64,000 nucleotides of DNA from positions 129,841-193,840 of IMG/VR virus record IMGVR_UViG_3300021387_001157. One strand, given 5' to 3'. Shown here one piece after another: positions 16,628-33,323 of this stretch. The DNA comes from a virus (lineage: Duplodnaviria > Caudoviricetes). The position numbers and the translations under genes are program-made. Each line of letters starts with the position of its first letter. The first letter of the stretch is position 1. The notes beneath the pieces were generated by a model. It was not told the origin of the DNA. It saw nothing but the letters and a program-made list of their open reading frames with translations, and did not search any database.

Positions 16628-16766
16628 CAGGAGTGGGAGGATTCGAACCACCGTCTACGGTTTTGTGACTATATATCAATTTCTCAATATATAACCTAGA
16701 ATTAAAGGCTCTCACAGGACCTCACCCTGTATGGAGACCGTCATTCTGCCACTGAACTACACTCCT
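16628..16766 (-). tRNA. tRNA-Trp(CCA) with 68-nt insert in the anticodon loop (about 16664-16731)
   Basis: exons join to ACGGT-CTCCA|AA-ACCGT. Confidence 0.8.
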
Positions 16767-17208: not shown

Positions 17209-17322
17209 TCAGACGATGAGACTTGAACCCATACTCCAATGCAGGAACCGGTTTTTCTTGGAAATTGCTGACTTATTCTTTACATTGACCAAGAATATCC
17301 CTAATTCGACCAGCGTGTCTAC
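17209..17322 (-). ncRNA. degenerate tRNA-like RNA carrying a variant stem+CAGCAA module
   Basis: T arm ATGGG-TTCAAGT-CTCAT; ATTCTTGG..AAAGAATAAGTCAGCAA. Confidence 0.45.
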
Positions 17323-17332
17323 CTTTCACTTG

Positions 17333-17406: not shown

Positions 17407-17416
17407 GTTTTATTAG

Positions 17417-17591
17417 TGGAGTTATGTGGATTCGAACTTCATCTTCCAAACATCCATCAATGTTCCTTTGACAAATGTAAGGTCTGATGAAGGGGGCAAA
17501 AGTTTTATAAAACCCCCACACACCCTCCTGTAACAAGTCTGTACACAACCATTACAGCCGGCTTCCAGCCCGTTTAAGAGAACTTAACCCC
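17417..17591 (-). ncRNA. Ala-acceptor (G3.U70) tRNA/tmRNA-like RNA, about 175 nt
   Basis: GGGGTTA/TAACTCC-A acceptor; TTCGAAT T loop. Confidence 0.55.
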
Positions 17592-17674: not shown

Positions 17675-17687
17675 TTGTTAAATATAC

Positions 17688-17829
17688 AAGAACCGACCGG
17701 ACTCGAACCTGCACTGACTGTCGTATTAAAACCTTTCGGTCTACCGTCCTACATTTACAAGGGACTCACCCCTTTCCAGTACTCATACAATTCGTGGCGA
17801 GAGTATACCAATTCCTCCTCACAGTCCTT
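17688..17829 (-). ncRNA. tRNA-scaffold RNA with multi-hairpin insert
   Basis: acceptor AGGACTG/CGGTTCT; D arm with TGG; T loop TTCGAGT. Confidence 0.6.
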
Positions 17830-17923: not shown

Positions 17924-18100
17924 TGGTGAGGGTAGGATTCGAACCTACGAACTCCGAAGAGGGCAGATTGCTCTGTATGCCAGACTCGAACTGACTATTT
18001 ATGTTTATCATAAATTCTCCCGAATGAGTTTATACAGAGTTTGATTTTCAGTTTTCTCTGTATTACAGTCTGCTGCCATTAACCACTCGGCCACCTCACC
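17924..18100 (-). tRNA. tRNA-Tyr(GUA) with 94-nt anticodon-loop insert (about 17969-18062)
   Basis: exons join to GCAGA-CTGTAA|A-TCTGC; long variable arm. Confidence 0.85.
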
Positions 18101-18290
18101 AAATTTGCAAGCTACAAACGTTTTCTCGGAACTTAACTTGCTGTGTTGTACTTCCACAATAGTTTTGGGTGCTTTATCCTCACACCTCGTGGTTCTGATT
18201 TATCTAGTCAATTCAGAACAAACCCTGCTTTGCTCCGTTCCAATGCACTTATTGTCTTTGGCACTAGAATCGCTTAACAGTACAATCTTG

Positions 18291-18367
18291 TGCAGACAAT
18301 GGGACTCGAACCCATAACCACCCACCGGTTTAGAGCAGGCACTCTACCATCATTGAGTTATGTCCAC
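18291..18367 (-). tRNA. atypical tRNA, possible CUA (amber) anticodon
   Basis: good acceptor, D and T arms; CTCTAAA in an imperfect anticodon arm. Confidence 0.5.
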
Positions 18368-18481: not shown

Positions 18482-18604
18482 TCGGGAGGGTGGGACTCGA
18501 ACCCACGACCACGGCTACCCAAAAGCTATTAGAAAAACGTTGCTGTTTGATTCTTTACCAAGAATCTATCATTTACGTGCTCTAACCAACTGAGCTACCT
18601 CCCG
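18482..18604 (-). tRNA. tRNA-Pro(UGG) with 49-nt insert in the anticodon stem (18527-18575)
   Basis: removing the insert gives CG|GCT-TTTGGGT-AGCCG. Confidence 0.8.
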
Positions 18605-18616
18605 TTCTTAAAAAAA

Positions 18617-18704
18617 GCAGACCCGCTTACCAACTACTTGACCGAGGGCTGTCTCCCCTTTCGAGGTGCCTTCGTTGGTGGACTTGAACCACTCCCATAT
18701 CTGC
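18617..18704 (-). ncRNA. circularly permuted tRNA-like (YrlA-like) RNA
   Basis: closing stem GCAGAT/GTCTGC; T arm first, then a hairpin, then D-loop-like AGTTGGTAA. Confidence 0.5.
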
Positions 18705-18709
18705 TATTG

Positions 18710-18784
18710 TGGGACCCCAGGGAGTTGAACCCCAGCCTCCGGATTTTCAGTCCGGCGTACAATTACCACCTATACGAGAGTCCC
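18710..18784 (-). tRNA. tRNA-Phe(GAA)
   Basis: loop CT GAA AA. Confidence 0.85.
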
Positions 18785-18907
18785 AAAAAAACGAGTATAT
18801 ACTTATGAATCCTCGTCATCCTATATACCCCACGACCAAACTAAACGTGTTGACCTGCTCCATAGTTTACTTAATGGCCTCCAGTATAAGCGAATGTACT
18901 CGTTTGT

Positions 18908-18978
18908 GAAATATGGTGGGACTTGAACCCACGGCCTCCCCCGGCGGGGGGTGCTCTACCAACTGAGCTACACAATCA
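18908..18978 (-). ncRNA. tRNA-like RNA with a 4-nt anticodon loop
   Basis: canonical D and T arms; CCCCC-CGCC-GGGGG arm. Confidence 0.65.
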
Positions 18979-19131
18979 CTTCCGAATCACATGGAAAATG
19001 GTTCTTTATAGTACCAATAACCTTGTTTCCACCAGTTAGGTCAGGAACATACCTCCGCCTATTTCTACCAAGACGGCTAATCCTCATCCTTTTATATCGC
19101 CCGACGAGGAACGGGCTATCACATGTGAGAG

Positions 19132-19205
19132 TGGACCACGATGGGATTCGAACCCACGACCCTCTGACTGCCAGTCAGATGCTCTACCGACTGAGCTACG
19201 AGCCC
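19132..19205 (-). tRNA. tRNA-Ala(GGC)
   Basis: loop CT GGC AG; G3.U70; 1-nt acceptor bulge. Confidence 0.85.
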
Positions 19206-19241
19206 ATGAAAATTGAGTTGTTTAAGGTCTAACTCAAGACT

Positions 19242-19523
19242 AACGACCGGGGCTGTCATCGATTCCACCATCCGATTTTATACGACATCGGAAAACGTTA
19301 GCGGAGAGAGTGGGACTCGAACCCACGACTACGGTCGTGACAGGACATTGAAGAACGTTGCTGTATGATTCTTTTTCAAGAATACTCTATTTACGTGTTC
19401 TACCAACTGAACTACCTCTCCATTTTGAGTTGTTTTAAGTCCAACCCAAACGACTGGGGCTTGCCGGTTTGAATCCGACGAGCGGTTCCACCATCCGATT
19501 TTATACGACATCGGAAAACGTTA
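19242..19523 (-). repeat. duplicated structured element (19242-19300 and about 19450-19523)
   Basis: AACGTTTTCCGATGTCGTATAAAATCGGATGGTGGAA..GCCCC.GTCGTT occurs twice. Confidence 0.75.
19302..19421 (-). tRNA. tRNA-Asp(GUC) with 47-nt insert in the anticodon stem (19347-19393)
   Basis: removing the insert gives CG|GTC-CTGTCAC-GACCG. Confidence 0.8.
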
Positions 19524-19566
19524 ACAAGAATCCATAGAATAGTTCAGTAAAATATAGAAAAATATT

Positions 19567-19865
19567 CTAATATCTTACATTTTGTTCGAGGTTCATAGAA
19601 CTTGCTACTGCTTGTTCTCCCACTCGCTTAAATTCGGGTGAACTCAACCCTATTATTCGTTTTCCTTCTTCTAGTATATTCTTTGCTGCGTTAATATCTC
19701 TGTCGTGTACAACACCACATTCAGGACAAAACCCACTCTCTATCAGAGAGTTGTAATAAGTCATTTTTATAACCACAGCAATAACATGTCTTTGATGAAG
19801 GATAAAATCTATCTATAAAGATTACTTTTTTATCATTCCAAGATGCTTTGTATTGAATTATTTGT
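19567..19865 (-). pseudogene. tnpB: TnpB (IS200/IS605/IS607) C-terminal remnant, frameshifted
   Basis: YKASW..IDRFYPSSKTCYCCG then frameshift to CPECGVVHDRDINAAKNI. Confidence 0.8.
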
Positions 19866-19905
19866 TTTTAACTCACAGAAACTAACATCCAGTGTTTTAT
19901 CTTAG

Positions 19906-19979
19906 TGGACACAGATGGGAATCGAACCCATGACTACCTGTTTGCAAAACAGGAGTTCTACCAACTGAACTACTGGCCC
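19906..19979 (-). tRNA. tRNA-Ala(UGC)
   Basis: loop TT TGC AA; G3.U70; 1-nt acceptor bulge. Confidence 0.85.
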
Positions 19980-20037
19980 ATGAAAATTGAGTTGTTTAAG
20001 GTCTAACTCAAGACTAACGACACTAACTTACCAATTG

Positions 20038-20122
20038 TGCCCAAGACAGGACTTGAACCTGCACTCCCTAAACGGGAACCAGCCCCTCAAGCTGGCGTGT
20101 CTACCAATTCCACCACCTGGGC
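20038..20122 (-). tRNA. tRNA-Leu(GAG)
   Basis: loop TT GAG GG; long variable arm. Confidence 0.9.
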
Positions 20123-20179
20123 ATTTGTTGTTTTTAATGCTTCTATATATTTTTTAGTTCATTTTTTTAGTTCAAATTG

Positions 20180-20250
20180 TTGGAGTAACTGGATTTGAAC
20201 CAGTACTATATCCTCCAAAGGGACATGTGCTGCCATTACACCATACTCCA
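20180..20250 (-). tRNA. tRNA-Gln(UUG)
   Basis: loop CT TTG GA. Confidence 0.9.
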
Positions 20251-20500
20251 ATGTCCAATGTTGTTTTATCTGCAAATAAAAAATCCCACACTTTCGAAAG
20301 AATGTGTGAGATGTTGGATATATGTTGAGATTAAAATGTGTTTCTAAAAAATCTTACAAATGATACAAACAAATCACACAACTATGGACACAAATAGGAT
20401 AATCGCCATCTGATAAAACCAGTAGACGAGTCCTTTTTTAAATCCCTTATGTTGTTTATTTGTATTCATATCTTCGTTATTTATGTAAGTTTCTTTTCTA

Positions 20501-21037
20501 TTATTTATGTAAATTAATTTCATATGGTTTTATTGAGCGTTTAACTCTTGCACCACTTCCATATATAAGACTATCTGCAAGTGTATTTCCGACTTCTGGA
20601 AGACCATTACGTCTTTTGTTGTTTAACTGGTCAGTATCTGGTTTCAATTCCTTTATTTTTATAACCACAGAATATACAACCACTTTATCATATGGATAAC
20701 CAAACTCTCCGAAAGTTTTTGCAAAATCTGGATAAACAGAAAGATATACATATCCACATTCAGACTGAAAACTTTTTTTCCTTTTTAGACTTGTGGTTAA
20801 AATACCCTTATCCATTATAGGATTTTTTTCACTTGTACCATGATAAAGTCTTATATAGTCTTCCTTGTGTCTTCTCAACCATTTGTTAAACTCATCAACA
20901 AGTTTTTCGTTATATTCACCATTAAATGAAGTGAAGAACTTAGAAGTTTCCTCATCATCTAATACATCGTATGTCTTTGGCTCTCTATAACTACCATAGT
21001 ATAATTCATTAATAAATTCATCAAACTTTTTAATCAT
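20501..21037 (-). CDS. putative ADP-ribosyltransferase-fold protein with capsid-targeting-like N-terminus
   Basis: LYHGTS and GYVYLS motifs; starts MIKKFDEFINE. Confidence 0.55.
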   Translation of the reverse strand: MIKKFDEFINELYYGSYREPKTYDVLDDEETSKFFTSFNGEYNEKLVDEFNKWLRRHKEDYIRLYHGTSEKNPIMDKGILTTSLKRKKSFQSECGYVYLSVYPDFAKTFGEFGYPYDKVVVYSVVIKIKELKPDTDQLNNKRRNGLPEVGNTLADSLIYGSGARVKRSIKPYEINLHK

Positions 21038-21071
21038 ATTTATGTTTGCTTTATTTATTTATGAATTTTTG

Positions 21072-21145
21072 TACTCCGGACGGGACTCGAACCCGTAATC
21101 TCCACCGTGAAAGGGTGGTGTCCTAACCAATTAGACGACCGGAGC
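21072..21145 (-). tRNA. tRNA-Glu(UUC)
   Basis: loop CT TTC AC. Confidence 0.95.
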
Positions 21146-21214
21146 ATAGTTGTACCGATGTCGCTCGATACGGGCGGGTGAAAAATCACCATCTTGCCAA
21201 GTCGGGTTTTTATG

Positions 21215-21287
21215 TCGGGCAGAGAGGACTCGAACCTCCGACCCCTTGGTCCCAAACCAAGTGCTCTACCAACTGAGCTACTACCCG
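21215..21287 (-). tRNA. tRNA-Pro(UGG), uninterrupted
   Basis: loop TT TGG GA. Confidence 0.95.
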
Positions 21288-21743
21288 TTTTTACTAAAGT
21301 GTGTTGTGAATACACTTATAGTCTAACACATAACCTATTTCAGTGTATTCCAAAGTGAATATCTCTTTGACCGGTTTGCTACCATACAAATTCGGTCAGA
21401 AGGACTGACCATTTGTGTGTTTTTTTCCACACCAGCACTCCTTTAGGGAAACATTCTCTTAACATATTTCCCGTTCTCGGTCGTTTCCAATTCCGATACT
21501 AGGTAGTTGTCTTACATCACCTGAACATCCGGTTGACAACTGGGCGAGCATAAATTTTCCGGATATCTTTTCCAAACTTTCATTGCTTATAGGAACAATA
21601 TTTGGGTTTCGGGTTTCACTTATTCAGACTCCAATTGATATATAATAGAGTGTGAACGTGAACATTTCATATATATAATACCATAATTTCTCTGCCTATA
21701 ACACCTCGGATGAAAATTCCGAGCCCTATTCCTTATAGTATTG

Positions 21744-21816
21744 TGGACCCACTGGGAATCGAACCCAGACCTAAGGCTTGCAAAGCCCTCGTGCTCGCCG
21801 TTATCACCATAGGCCC
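21744..21816 (-). tRNA. tRNA-Ala(UGC)
   Basis: loop TT TGC AA; G3.U70. Confidence 0.85.
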
Positions 21817-21883
21817 ATATCAAGACTTTTTGACACAAATTCTTCAAATCAACTTAGAAGAAGTGATATTATTTGTTGCATAA

Positions 21884-22006
21884 CAAGATTCTTTAATTAA
21901 CTTCATAAAAAGTATCTTTTCAAATTTGTGCCGGACGGTCTTGTCTTCGTCCTTAAACGTTTACATGATGCTTATAATTTTGTAAATCGTTGCTGTTTGA
22001 ATCTTT
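21884..22006 (-). ncRNA. free-standing stem+ACAGCAA element
   Basis: AAAGATTC-AAACAGCAA...GAATCTTG. Confidence 0.6.
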
Positions 22007-22020
22007 AACAAACAATATTG

Positions 22021-22092
22021 AGCCCTCTATTGGAATCGAACCAATATCTGAAGATTACAAATCTACTATAATAACCTTTATACTAAGAGGGC
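22021..22092 (-). tRNA. tRNA-Thr(UGU)
   Basis: loop TT TGT AA. Confidence 0.85.
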
Positions 22093-22097
22093 TTTTA

Positions 22098-22159
22098 CAA
22101 GGTTCACTTTTATGAGTCGAACATAATAGAACCGAAAAACAGTTGCTGTATGAACCTTT
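22098..22159 (-). ncRNA. free-standing stem+ACAGCAA element enclosing a T-arm hairpin
   Basis: AAAGGTTC-ATACAGCAA..TTATG-TTCGACT-CATAA..GAACCTTG. Confidence 0.65.
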
Positions 22160-22164
22160 AATTT

Positions 22165-23000
22165 AGTGAGCAATGAGCAGTCTCCCACTCAAAACCCAAT
22201 TTCCTCTTTTGGAAAGCCTGAGAACTTAGGCAAAGTTGTCACCATTACACGACAGTTGGACATCGTTGTTCACAGTATGTATTTCTACATCCTAGGTGAC
22301 ATGTGCTCCAGTTTTGTGAAAACTGACAAACTCTTACTGCTTGATATCGTAGATTTCCGTTCTCCACCGACCGTCTTGCATAAGACTTCTGAAGATGCCT
22401 CCTCATTGTTCGATGATTACTTGTACTTTCTTGTCTTCAACCTTGCAAGTCTCCGACACCCCCGTGTTACAGAGGGACAAGCACATTTTCTACCAAACAG
22501 TGTCGTGCTCTTTTGCTTTTCTTTCAACATTTTTACCCTAATAAATAATTGAATCTTAGCTTTTTTTGATAACTGTTTTTAGAAAGATGTGGCACGACTT
22601 TGGTCATTCCTACCTTTTGAGTAAGACCCAACCAACACCTTTCTATGTTTCATCGTTCCCCAACGACTCCACATTCTCCGTTTCATCCCATACAATTTCT
22701 CACACAGAACTAATCCTTTGTAATACTTGCAATTGACAGGGAAATCTTTCACAAGTACCTGCTAAAGACCTCTATTGTACTTTCATACTCAAACCAGGTT
22801 TTACCCGATTGTCATCTACTTCATCCTCATCATTTGACATTGGATTTCCCACAGATAACGTGTCTTTTCACTTTTCAACAGATTGCATCTTTCGATACAA
22901 CGCCACATCCCGTTTATCTCGGATATGACTTTATCCCATTGCTGGATTATCCTTTTGTCAAGTCCGAAGACTCAACACGGTTCTGAAAGCGAACCTTTTT
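22165..23000 (-). ncRNA. large structured RNA, GOLLD-like (about 830 nt)
   Basis: no credible ORF; many hairpins; GTCGTGC/GCACGAC long-range pair; directly 3' of tRNA-fMet. Confidence 0.55.
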
Positions 23001-23003
23001 TTG

Positions 23004-23075
<72 letters not shown>

Positions 23076-23085
23076 ATCTTTTATT

Positions 23086-23640
23086 TTACACAAAGAACAA
23101 AATACCACATTCTATCATATCTTCTACTTTACAAAGAAAATCTGTTATATTTTCGTCTTTTATTTGGTTTATTTTCAAGTTATTACGATTTGCATTTAAG
23201 ATAATAAACTCTTTCCATTTCTTCATATCTATCATACATCTTTTGATAATATTTGTTGTATTCCTTTCAACAAATGTACAATAGACATAATCACATTTTG
23301 TGATAATCGACCAACCAAAATTTCCATGAGAAATAATCTCAAACGGAAGATTACCAGTATCAAGAGCACGACCATCAGATTTAACCTCTATCTTTTTGTA
23401 TCGTTCTCTTTCAGATAAAACTATATCCAATTCAGGTAAACTATCACCATATTCATTATCTATTACAAAATCGATATCAATCAACTGATACTCCTTTATA
23501 TCTGAAACGTCAAATATCTTTCTGCCAACATTCTGAGGTTTACTTGTAAACCATTCAATAAAATCTTTCTCACTTATTTTCCCGTCATTCAAGTCTTTCT
23601 TGAAATTAGGTTTTCTACTTGTTTTCTCTAAAACGGCCAT
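23086..23640 (-). CDS. PD-(D/E)XK nuclease-like protein
   Basis: IDF..IEVK.D..TGN..FE; overlaps the methylase gene. Confidence 0.6.
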   Translation of the reverse strand: MAVLEKTSRKPNFKKDLNDGKISEKDFIEWFTSKPQNVGRKIFDVSDIKEYQLIDIDFVIDNEYGDSLPELDIVLSERERYKKIEVKSDGRALDTGNLPFEIISHGNFGWSIITKCDYVYCTFVERNTTNIIKRCMIDMKKWKEFIILNANRNNLKINQIKDENITDFLCKVEDMIECGILFFV

Positions 23641-24437
23641 ACGTCAATATCATAATTCGTAATCACAATTTCACCACCCTTTTTACATTCTTTTCCACCA
23701 ACATTCGTCATACTGTATACAAAATCAAAACTATAAATGTTGTAATCCTTATACAAATCTCTTATGTCAGAAGATTCATCGTAACTTATCATAATCTTAT
23801 TATTTCCAGAGTGATTTTTAACCCATTCAAACAACATATTATGATTAAAGTTTTTATGAAGTTCTCCCTTATCTCCATATAGTCCGATTTTATTGTTTTC
23901 TTTATATGGCGGGTCAAGATAGATAAAGAAACCATCAATATCAATATAATCGTCAAGTTTAATAAAATCAGTATTCAAAAACGTTGTCCTTTGAATGACA
24001 CTGGAAATATCCTTAATCTTGTTAATTCCATCAATTGTGAAATTCCGATTGAATGCTTGTGAAGAATAATTGCTATTCAATCCACTAAATGATGTCTTAT
24101 TTGATATGAAAAAATGACTTGCTTTATTTCTATCAAGATTCAAGAACTCATTCTTAAATGTTTCACAGTTAAACTGGTTTTTTATCTCCAGACACTCATC
24201 AATAATACTCTGTGGGTTATTTTTAACAGTGTTGTAATAGTTTATTAACTTACAATCAATATCGTTTGCATATATCACTTGTGGATAATACTTCTGTATG
24301 ATATACAACAAAACACTACCACCACCCGTAAACACTTCAAGATATTTATTGACTTCATTTGGAAAGAATCTATCCAAAATCTTTGTCATTTTGGACTTTC
24401 CACCAGGCCAACGTAAATTAGATTTTACTTTACTCAT
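23628..24437 (-). CDS. dam: DNA adenine methyltransferase (Dam/D12 class)
   Basis: LRWPGGKS, EVFTGGGSV, YLDPPY. Confidence 0.9.
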   Translation of the reverse strand: MSKVKSNLRWPGGKSKMTKILDRFFPNEVNKYLEVFTGGGSVLLYIIQKYYPQVIYANDIDCKLINYYNTVKNNPQSIIDECLEIKNQFNCETFKNEFLNLDRNKASHFFISNKTSFSGLNSNYSSQAFNRNFTIDGINKIKDISSVIQRTTFLNTDFIKLDDYIDIDGFFIYLDPPYKENNKIGLYGDKGELHKNFNHNMLFEWVKNHSGNNKIMISYDESSDIRDLYKDYNIYSFDFVYSMTNVGGKECKKGGEIVITNYDIDVWPF

Positions 24438-24441
24438 ATAG

Positions 24442-24514
24442 CGGGGATGGTAGGACTCGAACCTACGACCCAGTGGTTAACAGCCACTTGCTCTACCTGC
24501 TGAGCTACGTCCCC
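24442..24514 (-). tRNA. tRNA-Asn(GUU)
   Basis: loop CT GTT AA. Confidence 0.9.
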
Positions 24515-24646
24515 AAAAATGATTTTTCTTTACCGTTGAAAACCTAAAACGTAATAGTCTTTACTCCACACCATCAAGCGACGACTCTTCGGATTACTCA
24601 GTAATTTACCTTTATATACTCTGGTCAGTCGTTGACCAACAGCTGC

Positions 24647-24722
24647 TGGCGGTCTATACGAGATTCGAACTCGTGTCACCGCCGTGACAGGGCGGCATGC
24701 TAGGCCTCTACACCAATAGACC
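24647..24722 (-). tRNA. tRNA-Asp(GUC), uninterrupted, CCA encoded
   Basis: loop CT GTC AC. Confidence 0.95.
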
Positions 24723-24749
24723 ATACCTATTTATGTTTAGGAAATTTTA

Positions 24750-24822
24750 CAAGGTTCACTTTTTTATCTTGTTATCTGAAATATGGTTCGGATTAGATTT
24801 TTTTATTGCTGTATGAACCTTT
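24750..24822 (-). ncRNA. free-standing stem+ACAGCAA element
   Basis: AAAGGTTC-ATACAGCAA...GAACCTTG. Confidence 0.65.
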
Positions 24823-24831
24823 AAATGTATG

Positions 24832-24897
24832 CAAGAATCTTTTCATGAATGATTCAAAAACTCTGAATTTCATAAAATTGTTGCTGTATGATTCTTT
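24832..24897 (-). ncRNA. free-standing stem+ACAGCAA element
   Basis: AAAGAATC-ATACAGCAA...GATTCTTG. Confidence 0.65.
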
Positions 24898-24991
24898 ATC
24901 TACACGATTTCCTTATTTATTATTTTTCCCTAACAATATAAATATAACAAAAAAATTCAAGAAAATTCAATTTTTTTGAATTTTTTTTTTG

Positions 24992-25063
24992 AGAAGATGA
25001 GCAGAATCGAACTACCATCCCCAGCGTGGCAAACTAGTACACTAACCATTGTGCTACATCTGC
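24992..25063 (-). tRNA. tRNA-Gly(GCC)
   Basis: loop TT GCC AC. Confidence 0.8.
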
Positions 25064-25067
25064 ATTT

Positions 25068-25157
25068 TGGCGGAGAGGGAGGGATTCGAACCCACGGGGG
25101 CTGTTACACCCCAACGGTTTTCAAGACCGCCGCCATAAACCACTCGGCCACCTCTCC
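25068..25157 (-). tRNA. tRNA-Ser(UGA)
   Basis: loop CT TGA AA; long variable arm; CCA encoded. Confidence 0.95.
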
Positions 25158-25284
25158 AATTGCCGTTTCTGTCTTTGTTGCAGAAGACTAACGGCTGTGT
25201 GGAAACTGTCTCCTGACATTACACTGCAACAACGTATGTCTCTTGAAACGTGATGACAACCACAATCCTTCACGATTGATTTTG

Positions 25285-25402
25285 CAGGGTGGGTAGGATT
25301 CGAACCTACGTCACGGCTACCAAAAAGCAAAGAAAACGTATTGCTGTAAGATTCTTTCACAAGAATCAAAAATACGTGTCCTAACCACTAGACGACCACC
25401 CA
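25285..25402 (-). tRNA. tRNA-Gln(UUG) with 46-nt insert in the anticodon stem (25329-25374)
   Basis: removing the insert gives CG|GCT-TTTTGGT-AGCCG. Confidence 0.8.
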
Positions 25403-25497: not shown

Positions 25498-25556
25498 CAA
25501 GGTTCTTCTTTCGACTTTTTCCACAAATCTTTAAGAAAGTTGCTGTATGAACCTTT
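25498..25556 (-). ncRNA. free-standing stem+ACAGCAA element
   Basis: AAAGGTTC-ATACAGCAA...GAACCTTG. Confidence 0.65.
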
Positions 25557-25559
25557 ACT

Positions 25560-25910
25560 CTGTGAGAGTTGAACAATCTCTCGTTCAATTCCCATCTCCG
25601 TTGTTTTGGTACAAGGAGAAAACCTGCCCTTAAAGACATTGGTCTAAACTACCACCGATTAGGCAGCAGCGAGCATCACCATTTCGTTGGTGTTGTTGTT
25701 AAAGTTGCCATTTACTGACAAGATGAGTCTCTACGCTTTTCATAATGATACAGCATCAAATCCAAGTCATCCCCATGTTACCTCGATAGTTCTGTCTCGT
25801 ATAGACCGCCCAATGTTGAATGTTTTTTCTACACTGAACAAACTGGTGGAGATGTTGGGGTTCGAACCCAAGTCTACCATACTTTCCTAAAAGTTTCAAA
25901 CGAAACCCAT
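25560..25910 (-). ncRNA. ssrA: circularly permuted (two-piece) tmRNA
   Basis: acceptor piece ending CATCTCCACCA (25844) precedes the 5' end GGGGATG (25774); tag ORF 25709-25659 GNFNNNTNEMVMLAAA*. Confidence 0.85.
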
Positions 25911-25913
25911 TTG

Positions 25914-25955
25914 TGATGTCACGGGAGTCGAACCCGTCAAAATTCCAAAGACATC
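25914..25955 (-). ncRNA. mini tRNA-like domain (acceptor + T arm only)
   Basis: GATGTC-TTTGGAATTTTG-ACGGG-TTCGACT-CCCGT-GACATC-A. Confidence 0.6.
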
Positions 25956-26409: not shown

Positions 26410-26421
26410 GATTATGTTTTG

Positions 26422-27042
26422 TACTCCGAGTGGGACTTGAACCCACACGCCCTTTCGGGCAAGGGATTTTCTTACTACACTATGTTACCATAGCACAAAC
26501 AAACGTTCTTGATACCTCAATGCCGTCCCTTGTTGAACTATTATGGACAGTTTCCATATTTTGTTTGTTTGTAGTCTCGACTATGTTATAACCATATTGA
26601 AATTCTTGCAAGATATACACTACTTAGACATCTATTGTTTAATTAGACATATCTTTATTAGAGTTAATTACTCTCTGTAGGAATTGCCATATACTCCAAG
26701 TGTTCTGTTCGTTAGTATAAATTTCAACTTAGGCTGCACCTCTATAGTCTGTACACGTTTATGAAGGAAAAGATGTAAAATCTTTTTGTAGATTAACCTT
26801 CAATTTAGCTCGGCGTTGTCCTACACATTATTGATTAGTGGTCTCACGCCCATGTTTTACGCTTTGACATGTAGTACAAGACCGGAGTTTAACCGGATAT
26901 CCCTCATAAAGAGGGTTAGACAAATCTCTTCAGGTACATAATCAAGGTTTTTCACCGAATTAGGGTGCTTCTAACAAGGACTTTCGTGCCTTGTCACTCA
27001 AATTTCTTAAGTCCCTCGTGTCTACCATTCCACCACCGGAGC
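26422..27042 (-). tRNA. tRNA-Leu(UAA) interrupted by a group I intron
   Basis: exons join to AGGGA-CTT|AAAA-TCCCT; long variable arm. Confidence 0.9.
26471..27008 (-). ncRNA. group I intron (538 nt) in tRNA-Leu(UAA)
   Basis: P1 ACTT/GAGT with U.G pair; CAGACTA and ATAGTC P7 elements; terminal G. Confidence 0.85.
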
Positions 27043-28795: not shown

Positions 28796-28801
28796 AAAAA
28801 C

Positions 28802-28900
28802 TAGGGAAGTGAATGGGATTGAACCCGTATCATCCGACATGCACACGCTTTGAAAGAAGTGCAAGTCTCAGATTTCACCCCCCGACGACCATCATTCCCC
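28802..28900 (-). ncRNA. tRNA-like RNA with elongated anticodon arm
   Basis: acceptor GGGGAATGA/TCACTTCCC; T arm; long arm capped by CTTTCAAAG. Confidence 0.5.
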
Positions 28901-30043: not shown

Positions 30044-30331
30044 TTAAATTGAAATATTGATATTTTCTGGAAGTTCAAGAACACAATAACCTAATATTTC
30101 AGTATTATCCCATTCATTTTCTAAAAAATAGTTATGTGCAAATATTGTAATAGATGGATATATAGAAACATATATAATACGTTCTTTTTCCTCCAAAATC
30201 TTATTCCCATAATAGTCAAATTTTTTTTCCTTAATGTGACAAAGGAAATATTTTCCTTTGTCACGTAGGAAATTTATAGTCTCATTATTTACTCGTTTAG
30301 GTTTTTCAAAATATTCAAATTCAACTTTCAC
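30044..30331 (-). CDS. hypothetical protein
   Basis: ORF. Confidence 0.55.
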   Translation of the reverse strand: MKVEFEYFEKPKRVNNETINFLRDKGKYFLCHIKEKKFDYYGNKILEEKERIIYVSIYPSITIFAHNYFLENEWDNTEILGYCVLELPENINISI

Positions 30332-31757
30332 TTTTCTTAGATTTTAATACGTTCTTATATGCTTGCCTCATCAACTTCAAACAACTCTCACGAGTGATGT
30401 CTGGGTTGTTGTAGGCGTTACTCATAACCTGCTTTAAAATATCCTTGATGATAGGACCAGGTTCAACCCCAAGTTCATTGATGACATCATCACCGTTTAT
30501 CGGAAGTCTGTATCCGAACATCTTTGAAGTCTTTGCACACTCGACGAAACGTGTATATTGACCGGTTATGCAGTGACTCTTTTCGTGAGCGAGATTGTCT
30601 GCCTCGATGACTTGACAAGTTCTCAGAAAACGTTCCTCTGTACCACAGATGTACATAAATTTGTTGATTGACTTTTCCTTCATCTTACGGCAGTCGTTTT
30701 CAAACCCCTTTGCCCTCATATGGTTTCTAATGATGAAACACACTTCGTCAATGGTTTTGTTGTCAAACTTCAAACGTTGGAGTATTCTCTTTGCAACATC
30801 ACTACCGACAAGCTCGTGGTCGTAAAAATGAACTTTACCGTGTTCATCAACAGTTCTGCACTCTATCTTACCAATATCGTGGAGTAATGCACCGAGACGA
30901 CAAATCAAATCCGGTTCAAAGAGGTCACAGTCGTTCTTCAGAACGGCGAGGGTATGAACCCAGACATCACCGAAGTGATATGCATTTTGACCAAGACCGA
31001 TAGTCTGTTCAAGTTCAGGAATGACATACTTCATTGCACCGATGTCGTTGATGAGCATTATCCCATGATGAGCATTTTTTGTCATAAGGATTTTGCAAAG
31101 TTCATCGTTGATTCTCTCGACGGTGATGATAGAAAGTCTGTCGGCATTTCTCTTCATTGCATTGAAAGTCTCATCTGAAATCTTGAAACCAAACTTTGTA
31201 TGAAAACGGACAACCCTCAAAATTCTCAAAGGGTCGTCAATGAAAGTCTGGTCGACCATCTGTTCCGACACCATTTCCATAGGTACTCTCAAAACACCGT
31301 TGTGAATGTCTTTGATACCACTACCAGTCAAGTCCTCAACCTTCTTTTTCGAAATATTGTAGTAGAGAGCGTTTATGGTGAGGTCTCTACGACTTGCATC
31401 CTCACTCAACGGTGCAAATACAGTCTGTGGGTTACGGCTGCCGGCATCGGTGTATTTCTCACCACGAGTCATTACACACTCTATTTCGTCATCCGGAAAT
31501 TTATTGAAATGGAACATTGCTGTCCCGTATGTCTCGTATACAACAACTGTTTTTGTAAAACCGTTGTCTTTACACCAGTTTGCAAACCTCACACCACCTT
31601 GTGGAAGGTCTATAACGAGGTCAATATCCTTGATTTCTTTTTCCATAATCAAATCTCTCACGGAACCTCCGACGGCGAAAACGTGTCCCTCGAACTCACT
31701 CCCTTTGGTGATTTCATCAATATATGATGTTATTTCTAAAAATTTTTCTTTTGTCAT
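30321..31757 (-). CDS. cca: CCA tRNA nucleotidyltransferase with HD domain
   Basis: VGGSVRD..DIDL, RRDLTINAL, DDPLRILR, LLHDIGK. Confidence 0.92.
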   Translation of the reverse strand: MTKEKFLEITSYIDEITKGSEFEGHVFAVGGSVRDLIMEKEIKDIDLVIDLPQGGVRFANWCKDNGFTKTVVVYETYGTAMFHFNKFPDDEIECVMTRGEKYTDAGSRNPQTVFAPLSEDASRRDLTINALYYNISKKKVEDLTGSGIKDIHNGVLRVPMEMVSEQMVDQTFIDDPLRILRVVRFHTKFGFKISDETFNAMKRNADRLSIITVERINDELCKILMTKNAHHGIMLINDIGAMKYVIPELEQTIGLGQNAYHFGDVWVHTLAVLKNDCDLFEPDLICRLGALLHDIGKIECRTVDEHGKVHFYDHELVGSDVAKRILQRLKFDNKTIDEVCFIIRNHMRAKGFENDCRKMKEKSINKFMYICGTEERFLRTCQVIEADNLAHEKSHCITGQYTRFVECAKTSKMFGYRLPINGDDVINELGVEPGPIIKDILKQVMSNAYNNPDITRESCLKLMRQAYKNVLKSKKSES

Positions 31758-32445: not shown

Positions 32446-32670
32446 TTAGTCGTTCTTTAATAGTTCAACAATTTCTTCATCTGTATGCCACACACCGTTG
32501 AACGGTTTGAGTTCGGATTCAGTTCCGTTCTCAATGGCATCCATAAGTTTCAACACCTCGTTGTAGCAACGTGAACAAACCGAACATGTTCCGGATGAAC
32601 CACGATGGTTGAGACACTCTTTGTTTTGTTCTTGGATTTTACTCCTTAATGTTTCCCATTTTCCGTCCAT
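32446..32670 (-). CDS. hypothetical protein
   Basis: ORF. Confidence 0.5.
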   Translation of the reverse strand: MDGKWETLRSKIQEQNKECLNHRGSSGTCSVCSRCYNEVLKLMDAIENGTESELKPFNGVWHTDEEIVELLKND

Positions 32671-33323
32671 AATTGTGCTTTCTTCCAGTTCCTTGTCCAG
32701 TGCTCATCAGTCTGAACGTGATTTGCTCTTACGTATTTACAAACATAATTTGAAAATTCCATAATCGGAAACGAGTCTGTAATCCTCATCACAACACCCT
32801 CACGACCGCTTTTACAAGCATAGTATGATGTGTGTTCCATCAATTCGTCGATGATTTCCTTCACTTCACCCTCTTCTCTCAACACACACCTCTCCAATTC
32901 CGGAACGTGTGGGACACAGAGTATCTTTGCAAACTCCTTAACCTCATCCCAACTGTACCACAGATTACCGTCATTGACAGCGAACATATGCCAATAGTCT
33001 GACAGACAATCGTAATGGATAGAGTGCTCACCGTAAAGGTTCTCACCATAGATGGTTTCGTTTGGACCAATATACTGCTTAATTTTCCAATACAACCCAT
33101 CATACGAGTCCCAAAGGTTTCTTGACCAAGGAGACCTTGTTGGAGCACCGTGAGACCTTGCATACACATCATAATGTGTCATTGCTGTGTTTTCACCATC
33201 CAACTTCTCAGTGAATACAACCTCTTTTCCTTTATAGAAATCGAACCAACCGTCTTGAAGTTTTTTGTCGTCAGATGTTGCACCTGGTGACCAAGGAAGA
33301 TGGTATGTTCTTGGGTATTTCAT
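32646..33323 (-). CDS. ATP-dependent RNA ligase family protein
   Basis: YPRTYHLPWSPG; TEKLDGEN (motif I); GEN; EGVV; K.VR. Confidence 0.85.
   Translation of the reverse strand: MKYPRTYHLPWSPGATSDDKKLQDGWFDFYKGKEVVFTEKLDGENTAMTHYDVYARSHGAPTRSPWSRNLWDSYDGLYWKIKQYIGPNETIYGENLYGEHSIHYDCLSDYWHMFAVNDGNLWYSWDEVKEFAKILCVPHVPELERCVLREEGEVKEIIDELMEHTSYYACKSGREGVVMRITDSFPIMEFSNYVCKYVRANHVQTDEHWTRNWKKAQLWTENGKH

Follow-up and report, generated by a model that had tools for sequence, protein, structure and literature searches.

Ro60/Y-RNA particles are known from animals and from some bacteria, and the tRNA-like Y RNAs have no settled function. The closest known system to the one described here is Ro60 with the tRNA-like YrlA RNAs, in which a small noncoding RNA built on a tRNA-like body is found beside a Ro60-fold ring protein with a vWA/MIDAS domain (PMC4201824). 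YrlA is modular. A protein-binding helix, formed by the 5′ and 3′ ends of the RNA, is combined with a tRNA-like part whose acceptor is capped, and the Ro60-binding stem stands in place of the anticodon arm. RNAs of this type are often found with RNA-repair genes, and those of Salmonella are in an operon with RtcB and RtcA (PMC7790460). Here we describe chimeric tRNAs of a tailed phage (Caudoviricetes; IMG/VR record IMGVR_UViG_3300021387_001157). The stretch analysed, referred to as the window, is the last 64 kb of the 193,840-bp record; with a completeness estimate of 67% at this length, the source virus is a jumbo phage. Three tRNAs in the window, for Pro, Asp and Gln, are interrupted in the anticodon stem by a conserved RNA module, and across phages the module is linked to the gene of a protein (DUF2828+DUF7788) that is predicted to have a Ro60-like fold. 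On balance, we consider that the chimeras probably are tRNA scaffolds that retain the module as a protein-docking handle, which would make them part of a Ro60/Y-RNA-type particle that differs from the known ones in its protein family and its handle and whose topology is inverted.

A preliminary description of this DNA, made from the sequence alone, had placed an insert directly after A26-C27-G28 in each of the three tRNAs. The cloverleaf parse confirmed this location, with 46–49 nt inserted after position 28 (Table 1) and with acceptor and D-stem pairing of 11/11 in Pro, 11/11 in Asp and 10/11 in Gln. The chimeras are full-length matches to the Rfam tRNA model (model positions 1–71; 48 bits for Pro, 44.8 for Asp and 40.3 for Gln) and, like YrlA, have a tRNA-like domain with D and T arms; ARAGORN gave no call for any of the three. 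Excision of the insert in silico restored a perfect 5-bp anticodon stem and a canonical 7-nt loop in each case, as had been claimed. With the junction marked by a hyphen, the restored stems and loops are CG-GCU/AGCCG with UUUGGGU in Pro, CG-GUC/GACCG with CUGUCAC in Asp, and CG-GCU/AGCCG with UUUUGGU in Gln. The full canonical anticodon arm and the open acceptor ends distinguish these RNAs from YrlA. In the minimum-energy folds of all three RNAs, the hairpin of the insert, the acceptor stem and the T arm form. An alternative ACGU/ACGU pairing between the insert and its 5′ junction, proposed earlier, was present in the folds of Pro and Gln but absent from that of Asp, and neither this pairing nor the CGT noted 3′ of ACAGCAA is kept in relatives (AATGTT in the Asp chimera of phage G002 and in phage G001, AAATTT in Asn chimeras). 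In sibling phages the exons and the module core are kept, the linkers carry insertions and deletions, and the T stem of Pro has changed by compensation. ARAGORN also called the intact Pro-UGG (21214–21287), Asp-GUC (24647–24722) and Gln-UUG (20179–20250) genes that had been noticed in the window. Since each chimera has an intact isoacceptor twin, decoding is independent of the chimeras.

The insert is a real structured element. It is composed of an A/U-rich linker starting with UA(A/U), a 7-bp hairpin, two variable bases, an invariant ACAGCAA and a U-rich linker. The hairpin arms are GATTCTT and AAGAATC, closed by a 4-nt GNNA loop (GNRA in Asp and Gln), and the pattern ATTCTTG-NN-AAAGAATC-NN-ACAGCAA fits all three inserts with 0 mismatches, against 0.00 fits expected in shuffles, so that the shared core seen at first holds. 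A covariance model of the insert, designated R1, was built and searched. It scored 51.1 bits on Pro (E 4e-12), 47.0 bits on Asp (E 6e-11) and 53.1 bits on Gln (E 1e-12), and matched the module across phages. In 17 module copies from the window and about 10 other phage lineages, 95% of the stem cells pair; two positions show full compensatory change and G-U pairs are present. None of 500 shuffles reached the observed stem score, and slid controls paired at 40–52%. The covarying 5′ arms (GATTCTT, GTATCTT, GTGTCTT, GGGTCTT and GCGACTT) each have a matching 3′ arm. The proposed handle is an internal 7-bp hairpin with ACAGCAA, whereas that of YrlA is a terminal helix. Both the insert position and ACAGCAA are kept in related and unrelated phages. 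No Rfam family covers these RNAs in the window between 14 and 30 kb (E up to 1) or in 15 protein loci; in particular, YrlA was found neither in that part of the window nor in the 15 loci (gathering score). Group I introns also interrupt bacterial and phage tRNA genes, but those are larger (over 200 nt), contain a catalytic core and occupy the anticodon loop. The present inserts are far shorter, lie in the stem and gave no Intron_gpI match, and the earlier view that they are not group I introns stands.

Upstream of the DUF2828 gene in other phages there are one to three over-long, full-length Rfam tRNA matches, and these carriers are of two classes. Class 1 carriers are complete tRNAs with a canonical anticodon loop, and the insert is compatible with position 28 and starts with UA(A/U). 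Their anticodons include Asn(GUU) in several lineages with different covarying stems, and also Lys, Pro, Asp and Gln; the Asn loop CUGUUAA recurs in several lineages. Class 2 carriers have the module in place of the anticodon loop, and because they lack this loop no excision can yield a decoding tRNA. A core variant, ACUGCAA, was also found among the carrier RNAs.

The module is not confined to tRNAs. Six further copies, not noticed in the preliminary description, are present in the window, namely one in a degenerate tRNA-like carrier, four permuted stand-alone copies and one half (Table 1). The fourth carrier matched R1 at 17253–17307 (19.3 bits, E 0.005), and its orthologue in the sibling phage G002 (L114:7488–7546) reads ACAGCAA. 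In the four permuted copies the order is 3′ arm, ACAGCAA, 34–48 nt, complementary 5′ arm and then G, so that the helix is terminal. Of 18 open sites, which come from the window, from the sibling and a third phage and from the protein gene's leader, 11 have a perfect 7-nt complement 14–48 nt downstream, always followed by G and with four arm sequences; the null for mismatched arm combinations was 0/126. For the half module, no complementary 3′ arm was found within 75 nt. One permuted copy lies between the transfer-messenger RNA (tmRNA) and tRNA-Ser(GCU), 6 nt 5′ of the latter, and another between a GOLLD-like RNA and tRNA-Thr(UGU), 5 nt 5′ of the latter; the remaining two are adjacent, and R1 scored 23.9 bits across their junction. 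Over the full length of the record the motif AAAG-RWTC-WW-ACAGCAA has 8 copies, every one of them within the tRNA array and on the minus strand. Pairing between leader and trailer around each tRNA was considered and rejected: the 5′ arms match a downstream arm in the same spacer, not across the tRNA. Elsewhere, tandem hairpin-form modules with 69-nt and 47-nt spacing were seen in the giant-virus-binned contigs L130 and L183, and the bin of the latter also encodes a DUF2828 protein.

Several copies start 1–2 nt past a tRNA 3′ end or stop 4–6 nt before a tRNA 5′ end, so ordinary tRNA end processing could release the stand-alone copies from the array transcript. The same placement could point to a small self-cleaving or self-splicing ribozyme, located in tRNAs and spacers, that processes the array. 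Hepatitis delta virus-like theta ribozymes of gut phages are reported to adjoin tRNA ends, and the module has a conserved single-stranded core as a ribozyme might. This explanation is nevertheless very improbable. No known ribozyme or other Rfam family matched the module at E up to 1, the known catalytic cores need more than a 7-bp hairpin and some 9 conserved unpaired bases, and the linkers are variable. A ribozyme would also leave unexplained the tight and directional link of the module to one protein gene.

That link was found in three ways. First, the phage encodes one DUF2828+DUF7788 protein (520 aa; G000:42.0–43.6 kb, outside the window), and the leader (5′ untranslated region) of its gene contains a compact permuted copy of the module, A-AAGATTC-TTG-ACAGCAG-(14 nt)-GAATCTT-G, which ends 23 nt before the ATG. 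This copy is kept in the closest relative with compensatory arm changes. Second, DUF2828 was present in 14/14 searchable module-bearing records, including fragments of 27 kb and 45 kb, versus 1/23 control contigs (Fisher p = 2e-9 by record and 1e-7 by lineage). The controls came from a 17-mer scan of viral contigs whose matches were mostly chance ones in coding sequence. In the one DUF2828-positive control, a module-like match of 21 bits (E 0.012) precedes the DUF2828 gene by about 90 nt. Third, in 80 further loci fetched through the protein alone, independently of the module, 271 of 274 R1 matches were on the strand of the gene, mostly within 2 kb upstream, and the carriers of the module there are usually tRNA-shaped RNAs. 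In these 2 kb, ACAGCAA occurred 321 times on the gene's strand versus 6 times on the opposite one, and a stricter motif 87 times versus 0. The protein family is very large, with more than 6,000 relatives in the search.

The strand bias bears on a possible role of the module in DNA or transcription. The module might be an operator, a promoter, a terminator or a mobile miniature inverted repeat that tolerates or targets the anticodon-stem site, and the tRNAs would then be disabled genes. The arms are inverted repeats, the copy in the protein gene's leader has the location expected of an operator, and the 3′ arm GNNNCTTG is often found 4–6 nt before a tRNA start; it resembles TAnnTTTG, which we take to be the −7 promoter box of Bacteroidetes. 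We regard this role as improbable, because the module is biased to one strand relative to the gene (271/274 and 87 versus 0), ACAGCAA is single-stranded and conserved on one strand only, and G-U stem pairs maintain RNA helices and not DNA helices. Most tRNAs of the array have no CTTG box upstream, and nowhere else in the 194-kb record does the motif occur, so it is not a general promoter. The compensatory T-stem change in Pro and the conserved exons argue against decaying pseudogenes. Among specific identities, a genome-wide phage promoter was rejected, since all eight occurrences of the motif in 194 kb are in the tRNA array. A Bacteroidetes −7-box promoter in the 3′ arm and an N4-like hairpin promoter were also considered; the box is missing at most tRNAs, the arms covary with G-U pairs, and the permuted copies cannot form the small hairpin. 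A miniature inverted-repeat transposable element, an IS200-type hairpin end and an integron attC site, which were considered as well, had no matching features, and the strand bias is against them.

The candidate partner protein was characterised by sequence and by structure prediction. Pfam assigned DUF2828 and DUF7788 only, and PHROG 850, annotated as 'RNA-binding protein', matched with E 7e-125. NCBIfam and PDB sequence searches with the 520-aa protein returned nothing; Pfam TROVE did not match it and vWA_Ro60 reached only E 0.074. The AlphaFold model built from 28 homologues had a predicted local distance difference test score (pLDDT) of 82.7. Its top 11 PDB matches are all Ro60/TROVE structures, full-length and with E values of 9e-10 to 1.5e-5, and include Thermus phage Ro60, Deinococcus Rsr, and Xenopus and human Ro60; among the matches listed further down, most are vWA/MIDAS domains. 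No variation was seen at D310, S312 and S314, the residues of the MIDAS DxSxS motif. The Ro60 of Thermus phage phiLo (PMC12135203; PDB 9l5y), also a phage-encoded Ro60-fold ring, was the second-best structural match (E 2e-9) but has a sequence identity of 13–14% and belongs to a different Pfam family. The model thus has a Ro60-like fold, and the likeness predicted for the protein is one of fold and not of sequence-family membership. In this the candidate partner differs from that of YrlA, since it is DUF2828+DUF7788 and not TROVE by sequence. Upstream, its gene adjoins an SmpB gene, with only a short cysteine-rich frame between them (L236:2247–2744, −). With tmRNA in the array and SmpB near the Ro60-like gene, the phage may have an RNA quality-control cluster. 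Other structured RNAs were seen at related loci: phage G003 has a ROOL RNA (264 bits) in its tRNA array (L117:801–1387, +) and a group I intron match (L117:10053–10415, +) about 350 nt downstream of the last DUF2828 match, and in another phage a HEARO RNA (132 bits) lies directly downstream of the Ro60-like gene (L310:5582–5800, +).

The perfect stems obtained by excision raise the possibility of true tRNA introns, in which an endonuclease would excise the module and a phage RNA ligase would join the halves into functional tRNAs for Pro, Asp and Gln. The part of the Ro60-like protein would then be to chaperone or guide the excision, or to bind the excised module as a stable partner RNA; some archaeal tRNA introns encode a protein-bound guide RNA. 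Perfect stems with canonical loops result in all class 1 cases, the site of insertion does not vary, every insert opens with UA(A/U), and the anticodon loops are conserved while the stems covary. The array also has neighbouring genes for an RNA ligase, an RNA-ligase-like OB-fold protein and a CCA-adding enzyme. We nevertheless consider introns unlikely. The EndA-type endonuclease (PF01974) and RtcB (PF01139) were not found in the 67%-complete record, in searches with positive controls. Archaeal and eukaryal bulge-helix-bulge introns are likewise short, have fixed sites (in some archaea also in the anticodon stem) and restore the cloverleaf when removed, but the host here is bacterial. The minimum-energy and centroid folds contain the P1 hairpin and, for two of the three RNAs, a flank helix of 4 bp, but no bulge-helix-bulge with 3-nt bulges around a 4-bp helix. 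The linker lengths differ between sibling phages, and the intact isoacceptor twins would make the spliced products redundant. Moreover, the same module is present in class 2 carriers, stand-alone copies and an mRNA leader, where no tRNA splicing is possible. A splicing system proper to bacterial viruses, with the Ro60-like ring protein gripping the module and directing excision after position 28 and the phage RNA ligases re-ligating the halves, is more doubtful still. If true, it would let the phage switch on Pro, Asp, Gln, Asn, Lys and other tRNAs during infection, and bacteria and their viruses would have their first case of tRNA splicing that depends on a protein.

The preliminary description had left two readings, a new class of short tRNA intron and chimeric decoys carrying a protein-binding aptamer. 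The latter is now favoured by the link to the protein gene and by the non-tRNA and loop-less carriers, and for the former neither a splicing endonuclease nor RtcB was found in the 67%-complete record. A docking handle is the simplest account of the non-decoding carriers, the stand-alone and mRNA-leader copies, the strand and position linkage, the redundancy of the chimeras and the variable linkers. In such a particle, each chimera would be a complete tRNA body with the module as a side arm that leaves the anticodon stem on its 5′ side, between positions 28 and 29. The hairpin and NN-ACAGCAA would dock the DUF2828+DUF7788 ring protein, the insert would remain part of the mature RNA, and the permuted copies that stand alone would act as partner RNAs of minimal size. 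By analogy with Ro60/Y RNA, the handle would hold the protein, and the tRNA body would recruit, or be recognised by, a tRNA-binding factor. One candidate for this factor is a host anticodon nuclease, for which the RNA would be bait or decoy; others are the tRNA-repair enzymes beside the array (RNA ligase and CCA-adding enzyme). Docking alone leaves the true anticodon loops of class 1 unexplained. We infer that the mechanism also involves a factor that reads the anticodon, for example a synthetase, a modification enzyme or a host anticodon nuclease.

Several points weigh against the docking handle. Its account of the class 1 loops needs the added assumption that an anticodon-reading protein recognises them, and these carriers keep perfect 5-bp split stems and canonical 7-nt loops as an intron-bearing functional tRNA would. 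In every class 1 insert UA(A/U) comes first, immediately 3′ of position 28, and could act as a signal for cleavage. About 105 kb separate the chimeras of this phage from the protein gene, which also sets these RNAs apart from YrlA, whereas in most other phages the carriers are adjacent to it. The Ro60 likeness is one of predicted fold, with no TROVE match and with moderate TM-scores (template modelling scores) of 0.40–0.65, and it is the co-occurrence of module and gene that suggests physical binding of the module by the protein.

Table 1 Coordinates of module-bearing RNAs and of RNA-processing genes adjoining the tRNA array (window positions).
Feature	Position	Strand	Details
Chimeric tRNA-Pro(UGG), 123 nt	18482–18604	−	5′ part 18604–18576; insert 18575–18527 (49 nt); 3′ part 18526–18482
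Chimeric tRNA-Asp(GUC), 120 nt	19302–19421	−	insert 19393–19347 (47 nt) after position 28
Chimeric tRNA-Gln(UUG), 118 nt	25285–25402	−	insert 25374–25329 (46 nt) after position 28
Fourth carrier, degenerate tRNA-like gene (T arm and acceptor remnant)	~17210–17330, boundaries approximate	−	TATTCTT..AAGAATA, TCAGCAA
Permuted stand-alone module	25498–25556	−	A-AAGGTTC-AT-ACAGCAA-(34 nt)-GAACCTT-G; perfect complement at offset 34
Permuted stand-alone module	24832–24897	−	A-AAGAATC-AT-ACAGCAA-(41 nt)-GATTCTT-G; kept in G002 (L114 13913)
Permuted stand-alone module	24750–24822	−	A-AAGGTTC-AT-ACAGCAA-(48 nt)-GAACCTT-G; directly follows the 24832–24897 unit
Permuted stand-alone module	22098–22159	−	A-AAGGTTC-AT-ACAGCAA-(37 nt)-GAACCTT-G
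Half module	21990–22006	−	A-AAGATTC-AA-ACAGCAA; 14 nt past tRNA-Thr 3′ end; R1 22.2 bits
CCA-adding enzyme gene	30321–31757	−	Pfam PolyA_pol (1e-24), PolyA_pol_RNAbd, HD, tRNA_NucTran2_2; context only, adjoins array
RNA ligase gene	32646–33323	−	Pfam RNA_ligase PF09414, E 1e-24; context only, adjoins array

The array that contains the chimeras extends over ~14.8–29.7 kb on the minus strand and comprises a permuted two-piece tmRNA (25568–25936, −) and 31 tRNAs called by ARAGORN, one of them a CUA suppressor. The RNA-ligase-like OB-fold protein is encoded near it. The suppressor tRNA (18290–18367, −) carries the ARAGORN label 'Pyl', and reading TAG as sense gives 143 frames of at least 100 aa versus 107 under the standard code, a modest gain. 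The Rfam tRNA model adds five over-long full-length matches, namely the three chimeras and the matches at 16628–16766 and 17924–18100. The former of these two (−, 139 nt) reads as a tRNA-Trp(CCA) with an insert of ~65 nt of a non-module kind in the anticodon loop (CTCCA-...-AA), and the latter (−, 177 nt) is a tRNA-Tyr(GUA)-like gene with an anticodon-loop insert of ~90–100 nt without the ACAGCAA module. The Tyr insert is similar to the Tyr(GTA) intron at 37/38 of Lak megaphages, gut phages of very large size that likewise have suppressor tRNAs for an alternative code and tRNA genes lengthened by 'enigmatic' introns (PMC6784885). The module inserts themselves differ from the Lak inserts, which are ~93 nt long, sit at 37/38 within the anticodon loop and, in the portion of the intron table compared, lack ACAGCAA; a Lak-type identity was rejected on site, size and sequence. 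The Trp and Tyr inserts belong to that other kind and occur in the window alongside the module carriers.

Remnants of a T arm and acceptor 3′ strand, with no ARAGORN or Rfam call, lie upstream of called tRNAs at ~17410–17450, 17680–17720, 26410–26450 and 28796–28836 (−), and may be further interrupted or degenerate tRNA-like genes. The GOLLD-like RNA (22215–22643, −; 77.8 bits, E 5e-19) is below the Rfam gathering score of 150 and is followed on its 3′ side by a permuted module copy and then tRNA-Thr. The host is bacterial, as the phage carries tmRNA, SmpB and a peptidoglycan hydrolase. Boxes resembling TTG ... TAnnTTTG were seen 5′ of Ro60-like genes (L276, L277 and G000 leaders) and of one module unit (~24900–24990, −); we take them to fit Bacteroidetes-type promoters and, hence, a Bacteroidetes host.

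In the literature searched, DUF2828 appeared in plant or tardigrade studies only and none addressed its function in phages, and a jumbo-phage overview lists only ROT/TROVE proteins, in a few phages. An uncharacterised family with a predicted Ro60-like fold thus gains a conserved candidate RNA partner module, grafted on otherwise complete tRNAs with real anticodon loops, in phages from gut and rumen samples. That the chimeras are tRNAs with a new kind of intron seems to us less likely than that they serve as tRNA-shaped partner RNAs in an undescribed particle for RNA repair or counter-defence. If they are baits or repair platforms for tRNAs cut by host anticodon nucleases, they would represent a widespread and undescribed layer of the phage–host contest over tRNAs; if they are spliced, a new splicing pathway would be at hand. 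Either reading would explain many 'broken' or 'intron-containing' phage tRNA calls, for the annotation of which R1 can serve, and the role of the tRNA-like part of Y RNAs becomes directly testable with defined anticodons.

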